In this document: one piece after another, positions 6,396-25,996 of the stretch
Layout of the letters: every line of letters starts with the position of its first letter
How positions within the stretch are numbered: position 1 is the stretch's first letter
Assembly (NCBI GenBank): GCA_951406725.2
Contig: OX597814.1
Location: forward strand, 200,756,001-200,820,000
Reading direction: 5' to 3'
Length of the DNA: 64,000 bases
Origin: Octopus vulgaris
Lineage: Eukaryota
Position numbers and translations under genes: made by a program
Notes under the pieces: model-generated
What the model was told of the DNA's origin: nothing
The model's database searches: none
What the model saw: only the letters and a program-made list of their open reading frames with translations

Positions 6396-6614
6396 AAGAC
6401 TGCTGGAAAAAAAGCAAATAAATAGAATAGAATAAAATGAACGTGAATAAATAGGGGATACTGATAATGCAGGTACCATACACATTCCTACACACACCAA
6501 ATATTGACATACACAGGGATATACGTATGTGCAAATAAAGACACATACAGCAGGAACACAAAATGGCAGCTCATTAGGACAGAGAGACACAAAAAAGAAA
6601 GAAAAAGCAAAAGA

Positions 6615-6654
6615 CCACTGATGAGGTCACAGTAGTGTGACGAAAGAACTCTAA
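6615..6654 (+). ncRNA. Minimal type-I hammerhead ribozyme motif (C3:G8, extra G, helix I decayed)
   Basis: CTGATGA(6618-6624)-G-GTCACA-GTAG-TGTGAC-GAAA-GAAC-TC. Helix II is a perfect 6 bp. Helix I is only partly paired (CCA/TAA). Confidence 0.7.
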
Positions 6655-7044
6655 AATATAATTAATATGAAATAAAGCTGAACCAAGTGAGCACCGAATA
6701 AATAGTGTGTGTGTTTTCATTGGCTAAACTGGCAACATGACCATCCCCAAATAGCAATATCTGTCTCAACACATGAGTTCACATCAAGAATCTTGCAAAA
6801 TGATTACATAAACATATATATATGATGTTATATATATATATATCTCATCATCATCATTATCGTTTTATGTCCGCTTTCCATGCTGGCATGGGTTGGACTG
6901 TTTGACAGAGGACTGGTGAGCCAGACTCTGCACCAGGCTCCAATCTGATCTGCCAGAGTTTCTGCAGCTGGATGCCCTTCCTAACACCAACCACTCCGAG
7001 AGTGTAGTGGGTGCTTTTATGTGCCACTGGCATGAGGACCAATT

Positions 7045-7353: not shown

Positions 7354-8390
7354 TGAGTGTGTGAGAGACAAAGAAAGAAAGAAAAAGGGAAAGAAAAACA
7401 ACAAAAGAAAAAGGAGAAAAAGCAAGTGATTGAAAGAAAAATAAATGTAGATATCCTGTTATGTATGGTGAGAGAACCACACATATGAACTTATATCATT
7501 TCTAAACTTGGCAAAGTATAAAACATCTACTTTTATATTGATTAGTAAAGTAGAAATTATTCTAGAAACAGAATTGTGTAGAAGCAATATTTCTCATCCA
7601 CTTTATAAGGTCAGCATCTGAGGTTAAAATACTTTGATTTGCTTTTTGCTTTGGTTAACTTTTGAAGGTAGAAATATATTTTATCTCTACCTGATAACAC
7701 TTAACATATTACACTAAAACAGGTTTTCCTATATTATTGTATTCTTTAAATTGTCTAGTAATATGATTTCCTCTTGCACTTAGTGTCTTATCATCATTGT
7801 TGTCATCATCATCACCACCACCATCATCATAATCATCATCATTTTACATTTGCTTCTCATGCCAGCATGGGTTGAATGGATCATCAATTTTTTAAATGAA
7901 AGTCACTGCTCCCAAAGACTGGTGCCCATAGTTGTTATTTGGCTTCATTTTTACAGTCGGATGCCTTTCTTATTCCCAACCATTTTACAGAGTGCACTGG
8001 GTGCATTTTTCTATGGGACCCACACCAGAGAGGTTGAATAGTCCTTGGTGAGAGACATATATAATGGGACATCACAGTTCCATGCTTTCTTTGCTCATTT
8101 GCCAACCACTTGCTGGCACCAGCACTAGACAGGTTCTCTTGTCCACCAATCACTCAAGTGCAGTGGTTCTTAGCTGGCGTCCCTATGACCCATAGGGGCC
8201 CATATAAAAATTTGGTGGGGTTCCATGCAAGCAAAATTATAAATTAGGGCTCCACATTATTTTTAGGCATCAAGATGTATTTATTGCATGAAACAACCAG
8301 GCTCCTTTCTCTAACACTTTACACTGTTCAACAAAATTTCTGGCCACTGAAACATGTTCTCCCAGAAAGTGTTATTTCACAGAACTCTGA

Positions 8391-8975
8391 ATGGAAACAG
8401 TGAATAATATAACCCAAACCCTCTGTTCTCACTATGCCAAACCTATGGCCTCCAAATACCTGATCCACCAGAACTCAGCTATTGCGGACAATGCCAAATT
8501 CAATATATTGATGGCAGACCTCATCAGAGTAATGAGAAATGTGTCCCACATGTGCAACCCTACAGAGTTAAAGAGACACATAGAACACTTCATCCACCAC
8601 ATGCAGTTGTCCGGATACAGCCATAGGGAAAGGATCAGAGTATATAAAGGAGCCATGACGGAATTTGAAACTATCATATATAAGGATAGGAGTGGGATTT
8701 GTCCACTCTGGAATACTTTATATATATGGAATACCAGTGAAAGGACTAAGAAGAAAATAGGGAAGGCCAACTCTTGGTATGGTAGCCACAAATACCAGAG
8801 TATCATGTTTGTCAACACCACCACTAGAGGCAAACTGGTGTGCTGCTTTAGAAGGGCTCCAGACAAGCTTAAGCTGAAAAGTAAGGTTGTAGAAAGGCCA
8901 GGTAACCCTATAAAATCCCTAATCAGTAGAACCTACCCGTTTAATAGAACCCCCTGTACTGATAGGAACTGGTGA
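8391..8975 (+). pseudogene. Penelope-like element ORF fragment (RT thumb/C-terminal region and linker)
   Basis: 194-aa ORF with YAKPMASKYLIHQNSA...KFNIL..DLIRVMRNVS...MQLSGYS...KVVERPG..IKSLI...YPF...C. This matches the PLE pattern Y.KP.....H..S....K..I....R..RN.S....SGY followed by a Cys linker. Confidence 0.75.
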
Positions 8976-9516
8976 AAGGGAGAAAGGGAGCTATTCTCAA
9001 ACTAGAGGTCTAGCTTTAATGCTAGTAATAGAATGAACTCTACTTGAGGAAGTTGAAGTACCAAATCATGCTAAACCATATGTAGGCATTCAGGCTTTGA
9101 CCAGATTTGAACTTAGGTAGCAAAGAGCTGGAACAAATGCTATAGCAAAAGCATCCAGTCTGATTTTCTTGCAGTTCTGCTAATCCACCACCCCAGGTTG
9201 GTACTTTGTAGTTTTTGATGGGGTAATCAACTGCAAAGGTATGGATGAAGAGCAAAGTTGACCTTGGCAGGATTTGAACTCGAAGTGAATAGAGCCTGAA
9301 CAAATAATATGGCATTTTATCCAATGGTCTAACAACACTGTCAGTCAGTTCCAAATTCACTACTTTTTCAACTTTTTACGGAGATGTACTCGCATAGCAA
9401 GTGATTTGATCTGAGATCGTGTGCTGGAACGGAAACAATTGCAGCGTGGAAGGTGTTTGTAAGCCATTTAAGAAACACACAAAAGCCGTTCGATTCACTT
9501 CAACATTTAAGTTTAA

Positions 9517-9566
9517 TTTGTCAAAATATTTTCGTCGCTAAAATCCGCGACCTGTTCACTGACAAA
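9517..9566 (-). ncRNA. Minimal type-I hammerhead ribozyme, G3:C8 core variant, within a ~210-bp element (9365-9577)
   Basis: Minus strand: TTTGTCA-GTGAACA-G-GTCGC-GGATTTTA-GCGAC-GAA-A-ATAT-T-T-TGACAAA. Perfect 7-bp helix I, 5-bp helix II, palindromic helix III. Confidence 0.8.
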
Positions 9567-10696
9567 AATCCGTGAGCAAACAAAAACTGAAGAACTTTTC
9601 CCAAAGAAAAATTAAGTTCACCTCTTTAGAATTTTAAAGAAAAAGAGTCTCAAAGAGTATTATTGATTAGCCAAAATGTGTCAGGAAGCTAAAAGGTTGG
9701 AAACCCCTGCTATATAAGAATCCTCACTTTTGGCAATAAAGTTATTGCCAAAATTTGCATTGATTTCTAACATTGGCACCATATAGAGTAATATCTAACA
9801 ACACAATCCAAACTCCAGATATTTTTTTTCCATGTTCTTCTGTGATTTTTATACACGCAGCTCTATTTATGTAATATGTATATATGCGGAGAATATACTT
9901 ACGTATAACTTTCCATTTAGTCATGACTAAAAAAAGCTCTTTTCAACTTCTCTTTCTATAATTTTTTTTATTTTTTATTTTTTTCTGAAATAAATCTTGA
10001 TTAGAAAAAAAAAAAACTTGTTATATTTGAAAAATAAATTCTTTTATTCCACATCCATTAAGCAAGGGAAATATGTAAAGCCGAAAAAAAAAAAAAAGAA
10101 GAGAAAAGTACCATTACATGAAATCTTGCCTAAAGCTTTGTGCAGATGTGTTACTTTCATGCTAAAGACATTTAAAACAAGAATAAAATAGAATATTTTT
10201 TTGTTAAATAAGTAAATATTTTACCATATTTTCCAAGTATATATACTACAACAAAAGAAAGACTTTGCTATTATTTGAATAATTAGCTACTACTACTACC
10301 ACCCCTACTACTATTACTACTACTATGATTTTTATCATGATTATTATTATTATTATTATTATTATTATTGTTGTTGTTGTTGTTGGCAATGGTTATTTTT
10401 ACTATAAGACTGTTTAATCTTTGCAACTTTAAAATCTGAAATAATTTCAGGCATAACGTGATCATTTTACTCTATTATTTTCAATTCAATGAAAATTTTC
10501 TCTTCATTCAAATTTCAAAAATAAGAAATAGCAGGTGCAAATCAAAATTGCACGCCACTTCATATATATCAGATATATTTCATTGAAGCTGTTTTATGGA
10601 AATCAGTACTAAGGAATTACACCTATATCATTATTCCTCTTGGAAAGTTATGTTTAATAAATAGGATTTACTATTTATTATTATGTGATAAGTGTG

Positions 10697-25128: not shown

Positions 25129-25187
25129 TTCTACTGAAGAGTGTAAAGTAATTTTTATTACAGAATACGAAATCTTAAGATATAGAG
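25129..25187 (+). ncRNA. Type-I hammerhead ribozyme with fully canonical core
   Basis: TTCTA-CTGAAGA-GTGT-AAA-GTAAT-TTTT-ATTAC-AGA-ATAC-GAA-A-TCTTAAGA-T-A-TAGAG. All three helices pair, helix III is the palindrome ATCTTAAGAT, and the predicted cut is after AUA (25182). Confidence 0.8.
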
Positions 25188-25345: not shown

Positions 25346-25996
25346 GCATTAATAAGTCTCTGAACGAGATATAAACAGTAACCACTCGACAACGTAAAGT
25401 GTACTAGCCATCTGAATGTGGCTAGCCACTGGGGGTGGGGTGTTACTGACGCTTTTAGCCCCAGGAGATCAACGTCACCAGCTGACCTTAGACACAATTT
25501 CAGTGCCCTTGTGTTATTTGCAAAGGGAGGTCATCCTCCATCGAAAACCTAAGTGATACATACGGACTATAGTTTCGAGGTAATTGCCTCTCGTCAACGC
25601 ATGGTAAACACCGGTTTTCGATGAAGGAGACCTTTGCAAATAATAATATTTAACGTTTTTCACAGCAACCACAGTCACTGATTTAGAAAAACTGTCTGAA
25701 AACATTAATAAATCTCTGAACGAGATATAAACAGTAACCGCTCGACAACGTAAAGTGTACTAGCCATCTGAATGTGGCTAGCGTCAGTAACACCCCACCC
25801 CCAGGGGCTAGCCACATTCAGATGGCTAGTACACTTTATGTTGTCGAACGGTTACTGTTTATATCTCGTTCAGAGATTTATTAATGCTTCCAGACAGCTT
25901 TTCTAAATCAGTGACGTTGATCTCCTGGGGCTAAAAGCATCAGTAACACCCCACCCCCAGTGGCTAGCCACATTCAGATGGCTAGTACACTTTACG
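25346..25996. mobile_element. Retrozyme-like/PLE-pLTR insertion: 356-bp unit in partial tandem plus two inverted segments, 13-bp TSD
   Basis: 25347-25426 repeats at 25703-25782. Segments 25781-25915 and 25912-25996 are reverse complements of parts of the unit. TTATATTTTTATA occurs at 25333-25345 and 25997-26009. Confidence 0.85.
25559..25603 (-). ncRNA. Minimal type-I hammerhead ribozyme (U3.G8)
   Basis: Minus strand: CATGCG-TTGACGA-GAGG-CAATTA-CCTC-GAA-A-CTATAG-T-C-CGTATG. 6-bp helix I (one G.U), 4-bp helix II, palindromic helix III, GUC site. Confidence 0.85.

Follow-up and report, generated by a model that had tools for sequence, protein, structure and literature searches.

A predicted minimal hammerhead with a family-wide G3:C8 core in a Penelope-like element of Octopus vulgaris

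The hammerhead motif carried by a Penelope-like repeat family of Octopus vulgaris, here termed family A, has G3:C8 as its consensus core pair, and it is the family, rather than any single copy, that constitutes the finding. The copy from which the analysis started lies in a 64,000-nucleotide stretch of contig OX597814.1 (the window, whose coordinates are used below unless a locus is named). A protein listed under Octopus vulgaris is 100% identical to this genome across 198 residues, in keeping with an octopus host. It is nearly certain that its motif is a variant of the known Penelope minimal hammerhead in which G3:C8 is both family-wide and derived. Hammerhead search patterns take C3 and G8 to be invariant; Rfam and the standard descriptors therefore miss this family, which numbers well over 5,000 copies.

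Anatomy and abundance of the motif

The motif occupies the minus strand of a solo terminal repeat, and the features of both are as follows.

9376..9574, minus strand: solo pseudo-LTR plus tail of Penelope-like element family A, 199 bp, assigned by terminal-repeat identity
9376..9467, minus strand: opening ~30 codons of the RT/endonuclease ORF with its likely start codon (9467), from longer copies
9376..9434, minus strand: tail, delimited by the two favoured 3′ termini of copies in the genome, from the bimodal 3′ ends
9517..9566, minus strand: type I minimal hammerhead motif with G3:C8 core, from sequence and motif scans
9560..9566, minus strand: helix I 5′ strand UUUGUCA, pairing with 9523-9517
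9552..9559, minus strand: core G3 U4 G5 A6 A7 C8 A9 plus an extra G (9a), from sequence, with G3 at 9559 and C8 at 9554
9534..9551, minus strand: helix II (5 bp, closing pair G10.1-C11.1) and loop II; subfamilies vary the loop and not the stem
9524..9533, minus strand: G12 A13 A14, palindromic helix III AAUAUU and U17, from sequence
9517..9523, minus strand: helix I 3′ strand UGACAAA, from sequence

The seven core letters run from 9559 to 9553 and are followed by the unpaired G (9a) at 9552, which precedes G10.1. Helix II is formed by GUCGC (9551-9547) and GCGAC (9538-9534) around an 8-nt loop, after which G12 A13 A14 (9533-9531) lead into the palindrome AAUAUU (9530-9525) and U17 (9524); the predicted cut site falls between 9524 and 9523, 3′ of UUU. 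Helices I and II are perfect and follow the type I order, while helix III pairs only as a dimer palindrome. The original prediction had listed a 7-bp helix I, a 5-bp helix II, a GUGAACA core, the AAUAUU palindrome and U17 at 9524, every one of which is present on the minus strand; what it overlooked is the extra unpaired G at 9552 and, around a motif that is itself real, the pseudo-LTR of a Penelope-like element. Its type I hammerhead fold with G3:C8 is one on which the sequence and the family copies agree.

All the conserved hammerhead positions (U4 G5 A6, A9, G12 A13 A14, A15.1-U16.1 and H17) are present, as are the traits of Penelope-type minimal hammerheads, namely the 9a nucleotide, G10.1-C11.1, a palindromic helix III and location in a terminal repeat. 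The departure lies at positions 3 and 8, where hammerheads are literally required to have C3 and G8 and the window motif has G3 and C8; the two letters are Watson-Crick complementary and, on that ground, would be expected to pair. The Rfam hammerhead models gave no match at gathering score across the window and none at E <=10 over 9300-9700.

Copies retaining GTGAACA, which the original prediction had proposed to count, are abundant. An exact 22-mer with G3 and C8 recurs 5,534 times in the genome; the same pattern with a letter other than G at position 3 has 192 copies, and C3:G8 appears in none of the 100 matches listed. A sample blind to the core was drawn as the first 100 of 10,717 copies of a 23-mer outside the ribozyme, a few of them segmental duplicates. 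Sixty-four of these copies span the core: G3:C8 is found in 60, C3:G8 in none, and the exact core octamer, 9a G included, in 57. Among subfamilies with older loops, the first 100 of 3,000 matches likewise include 95 with G3:C8.

These counts refute the reading that the window motif arose by accident, either as a double mutation in a degenerate member of a canonical family or as a coincidental resemblance, which retains a negligible probability. Block-shuffling the window 200 times and scanning both strands produced no comparable motif, and contigs of four sequencing runs bearing four other organism labels, one run being thinly covered, list no second letter at 9559 or 9554. The original prediction had itself reckoned with a chance double mutant, should the family consensus be CTGAAGA; the consensus is GUGAACA, and that objection therefore fails.

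The parent element and the origin of the exchange

Relative to the usual family A 5′ end, the window copy is 8 nt short, and it is 95-96% identical to both terminal repeats of a long element at another locus (L130). Its identity to other solo copies reaches 99.5%, near-identical copies being found throughout the 2.8-Gb genome; the youth that had been predicted for it is borne out by a copy at L003 that differs once in 200 nt. At L130, two motifs ~4.26 kb apart flank the ORF, with an inverted truncated copy upstream, and in 28 of the best 30 ORF matches the motif follows the ORF on its strand, ~1 kb downstream. The reading frame that opens at 9467, 56 nt after the predicted cut, continues into the RT ORF in longer copies.

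That ORF is single and ordered as RT, CxxC and, at its C-terminus, a GIY-YIG domain, the last scoring 25.4 bits against a Pfam cut-off of 22.6. Pfam RVT_1 gives no score in it, the RT being called from motifs (YVDD); the family A RT also weakly matches (21%, E 6e-9) a family that does score RVT_1. Pseudo-LTRs, a 5′ inverted truncated copy, an optional tail and a (TA)n insertion bias are all present, and passages of PMC8557442 give the same set as features of Penelope-like elements. Among the copies fetched, none is a complete and unbroken family A element, and the longest open frame has 1,025 residues. Partial inverted ends had suggested a MITE, a reading that fails because the 5′ ends vary, the 3′ ends are bimodal and a parent ORF exists.

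Within Penelope-like elements, the C-x3-C-x2-C linker of the family A ORF fits the CX2-5CxxC linker before the endonuclease that a supplement legend of PMC8557442 assigns to the Neptune and Nematis clades; the three family peptides in that supplement gave no match to family A. A Hydra-like KDHK motif combined with a CxxC linker is seen in family A, in the related family B and in their marine relatives (L121 2471-5545, minus strand, and P0001-P0120). Together these are only 21% identical to a distant octopus family, family C, and from their sequences they possibly form a separate Penelope subclade.

The C3:G8 version of the search pattern has nine matches genome-wide, eight in old family B copies and one in family D, an old related family; as none belongs to family A, an ancestral C3:G8 subfamily within it was rejected. 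The matches from families B and D have the helix I 5′ strand of family A and nearly all of its helix II. Because sister families keep C3:G8 in near-identical helices, the flip in family A is derived. The proteins of families A and B are 55% identical, and family A is sister to family B, whose pair is C3:G8, with SH-aLRT 100 in a quick tree, built without bootstrap from a set that included 18 of 77 metagenome loci and no named reference proteins. We infer from these sequence relationships that the flip to G3:C8 arose once, on the family A branch. Turning C:G into G:C would need two transversions by way of a mismatch, which would explain why G3:C8 is rare.

The 77 metagenome loci all have related ORFs, and the motif scan applied to them left positions 3 and 8 free. 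Seventeen have a motif with a perfect palindrome, positions 3 and 8 being Watson-Crick in 16 and C×A in one; once collapsed, these motifs comprise ten with C3:G8, four with U3:A8 and none with G3:C8. A possible A3:U8 motif at L268 failed a stricter scan and was dropped.

Mutants of family A at position 8 carry G in 37 of the first 100 of 402 listed, as counted by eye. C-to-G changes among them are about twice as frequent as C-to-A, and the matching changes at position 3 show the reverse. The idea that these represent a relic G3:G8 intermediate forming one lineage was rejected, the copies examined sitting on several subfamily backgrounds.

The cores of related families in this one genome are diverse, comprising G3:C8, C3:G8, C3:G8 with C9, U3:A8, U3·G8 and C3×A8. 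Family D (L419-L448) has U3·G8 in 14 of 29 copies, C3×A8 in eight, C3:G8 in four and other states in three, and a compensated helix I change is common to six of the eight C×A copies. In young family B, nearly all of 46 copies have C at the conserved position 9; very young members with 1,312-residue open frames (L201-L205, for example L201 2137 and 6725) carry C9, older copies carry A9, and the metagenome relative L252 also has C9. Family C (L088, L058-L079), with a 781-residue RT/GIY-YIG frame, has a U3:A8 core and often A17 or U17.

Several such motifs occur in the window itself. A decayed family B terminal repeat lies at 6480-6850 on the plus strand, and its motif at 6618, with a canonical CUGAUGA, an extra G and a 6-bp helix II, is 3 kb from the G3:C8 motif; a decayed fragment of the family B ORF follows at 8378-8964 on the plus strand (82% nucleotide identity). 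Further hammerhead-like motifs were seen at 25597 on the minus strand, with U3·G8 and a 6-bp helix I, and at 25134 on the plus and 35586 on the minus strand, with canonical cores and weaker stems.

Copy ends, folding and cleavage

The ends of genomic copies record which RNAs were reverse transcribed. In the core-blind sample, 3′ ends are bimodal, 39 of 100 falling at +141 to +151 and 58 at +197 to +210, and 5′ ends cluster at +1 to +4 (27 of 100), ~15 nt upstream of helix I; none of the 100 copies begins at the cut site, and a peak of 5′ ends at +16 was an artefact of the reference used. The purine preceding +1 is G in 90 and A in 10 of the first 100 of 951 matches (by eye). Such a G would fit a copied cap, with a subfamily that has G at this place as an alternative. 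Uncut RNA is clearly the main template of retrotransposition, and it is likely capped. Junctions counted genome-wide number 33 at the cut site versus 15 and 8 at two control positions, but of the 30 cut-site junctions examined, 17 are fold-backs arising at the 7-nt homology of helix I, which need no cleavage; once these are set aside, no clear excess is left. A spliced 5′ end was also considered and rejected: the letters before the G vary between copies, which leaves no fixed first exon. At L143 (~1295-1322), the likely transcription start coincides exactly with the end of a sequence resembling a branch point and acceptor, an arrangement reminiscent of the intron adjoining helix I in Drosophila Penelope that passages of PMC4209133 describe.

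Within the native 5′ leader, helices I and II are predicted to form with a probability close to 1. The lowest-energy predicted fold lengthens helix I by a G3·U17 wobble (-14.7 vs -13.3 kcal/mol), and helix III is predicted to be unable to close in a monomer, where it costs energy. For the window copy in its own flank, the predicted probability of helix I is 0.04, the strand misfolding with the flank, and no second motif copy able to pair with it lies within the window; taken together, these make the window copy probably inert.

With moderate confidence, we read the family A hammerhead as a slow, predicted self-cleaving ribozyme that would depend on dimer formation through its palindromic helix III. 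The flip to G3:C8 would have been kept because a 3:8 pair still forms. Transcription would start ~15 nt upstream of helix I, and two hammerheads, at the ends of a tandem element or as neighbours in an array, would join by way of AAUAUU and cleave slowly after U17, possibly with the element's protein assisting. Most transcripts would remain uncut, and reverse transcription initiated internally, either 145 or 205 nt from the capped end, would yield thousands of short solo copies, the window copy being presumably one such stub. An array at L085 (1905-4592), composed of 14 tandem units of ~170 bp that each hold a family A repeat and (TA)n, offers a natural dimer setting for the hammerhead. The array is retrozyme-like and has a C2H2 zinc-finger frame at a distance of 2 kb.

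Sequence variation points to constraint on the fold. A second allele at >=15% occurs in none of 42 ribozyme columns versus 9 of 68 flanking non-coding columns (Fisher p = 0.012), in a comparison of 119 distinct copies from the core-blind sample whose 15% threshold is arbitrary and whose copies are not independent; four of the nine variable flanking columns lie in the 8-nt loop II. The commonest helix variant is a U·G wobble. Families D and B have spread with imperfect cores, so a perfect core is dispensable for amplification, and a constrained fold does not by itself imply catalysis.

It is conceivable, if on balance unlikely, that the motif no longer cuts and that its fold is kept for another job, such as recognition by a protein or the RT, a role in translating the ORF that begins 56 nt downstream, or a promoter sequence, with G3:C8 as a tolerated remnant. 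The retrotransposed templates are uncut and apparently capped, ends at the cut site show no clear excess, the best predicted fold contains the G3·U17 wobble, and a related family carries U·G and C×A cores; moreover, other reasons could preserve sequence at the position of the motif, immediately after the likely transcription start. Catalytic mutants of the anole Penelope element are, in addition, unimpaired for insertion in vitro, according to passages of PMC11167929. Against a loss of cleavage stand the unpaired catalytic positions U4, G5, A6, A9, G12, A13, A14 and U17, which are invariant among subfamilies, and the outcome of the two transversions, which is a Watson-Crick pair, a weak point alone given that three of nine double changes would produce one by chance. 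So does the biochemistry of the identical swap. The original prediction had stated that G3:C8 can rescue activity lost in single mutants, and in the laboratory it does, although the rescue is only partial: the C3G/G8C double mutant partly restores cleavage of the anole Penelope hammerhead, whose cutting depends on added protein (passages of PMC11167929), and G8C drops the rate by ~10^5, with C3G partly restoring it (passages of PMC8495972).

A fast hammerhead, with the swap fully offset by loop contacts, U17, the 9a nucleotide or the protein of the element, seems decidedly improbable, for all that helices I and II are long, perfect and predicted with near certainty in the native leader. Tolerance of 3:8 exchanges is reportedly dependent on surrounding elements, going by the title of a 2007 study by Przybilski and Hammann, and this would also speak for speed. 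Nearly all sampled copies nevertheless come from uncut RNA, and helix III is unable to close in the monomer. The class is, furthermore, slow even with C3:G8, minimal Penelope hammerheads being dimer-dependent with low rates in the portions of PMC4209133 consulted.

A bolder extension of slow cleavage, which we regard as doubtful, is that this is the first natural G3:C8 hammerhead family and that Penelope elements deliberately keep the activity of their ribozyme low. G3:C8 and U17 together would then form a damped switch, by which a minority of capped transcripts is cut and the majority is spared to serve as RT templates.

Cleavage by family A would broaden the natural core consensus, and a G3:C8 pattern would have to be added to genome scans. 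As to what hammerheads do in Penelope elements, the genome itself here records an uncut, likely capped main template, with sister families as natural controls that hold the canonical pair in almost identical helices. Should the damped switch be true, the related families amount to a ready-made activity series on the purpose of the Penelope hammerhead. Should there be no cutting, family A would be a conserved RNA fold that outlived catalysis, which is informative, though less so.

Comparison with known systems

No natural G3:C8 was found in the literature searched, which comprised, among others, passages of PMC6155905, PMC7151607, PMC10085705 and PMC6765202, passages of the PMC4209133 supplement, the hammerhead table of PMC8557442, and portions of the text of PMC3088659, whose variants figure lay outside the search. 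The novelty of a natural G3:C8 family is provisional, because figures, the dimeric Penelope hammerhead variants of Lunse et al. and the work of Przybilski and Hammann 2007 were outside its scope. The natural core variants of Perreault et al. 2011 (PMC3088659, in part) also show covariation at 3:8, there to U3-A8.

According to Cervera and De la Pena 2014 (PMC4209133, in part), recurring traits of Penelope-element hammerheads are an extra nucleotide between 9 and 10.1, G10.1-C11.1 and a palindromic helix III. Family A resembles these metazoan pseudo-LTR hammerheads in its terminal-repeat position, type I topology, 9a nucleotide, G10.1-C11.1, short palindromic helix III and thousands of solo copies; it differs in its longer helix I (7 bp) and in its G3:C8 pair, the hammerheads described in the same passages having only C3:G8 or, in Schistosoma, U3:A8. 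The retrozyme-like character of the L085 array recalls the non-LTR retrozymes, which derive from Penelope repeats (bioRxiv 10.64898/2026.07.22.740005, in part), whereas the window copy is solitary.

At the level of the core, the G3·U17 wobble of family A resembles the known C3-G17 trap described in passages of PMC3884650. In the same source, a G3-C8 variant has lower activity when position 17 is C than when it is G, and U17 in family A may accordingly be a milder case.

PAc Poseidon of the green anole (PMC11167929, in part) shares with family A two preferred 3′ ends that define a tail, an ORF start inside the repeat and uncut RNA as the main template; passages of that study tie the tail signature of bimodal 3′ ends to two internal RT start sites. 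The start codon of family A lies 56 nt after the cut site, whereas that of PAc Poseidon lies inside stem II. The core swap itself is the same as the engineered C3G/G8C, with the difference that what is a laboratory mutant in PAc Poseidon is the natural state of the whole of family A.
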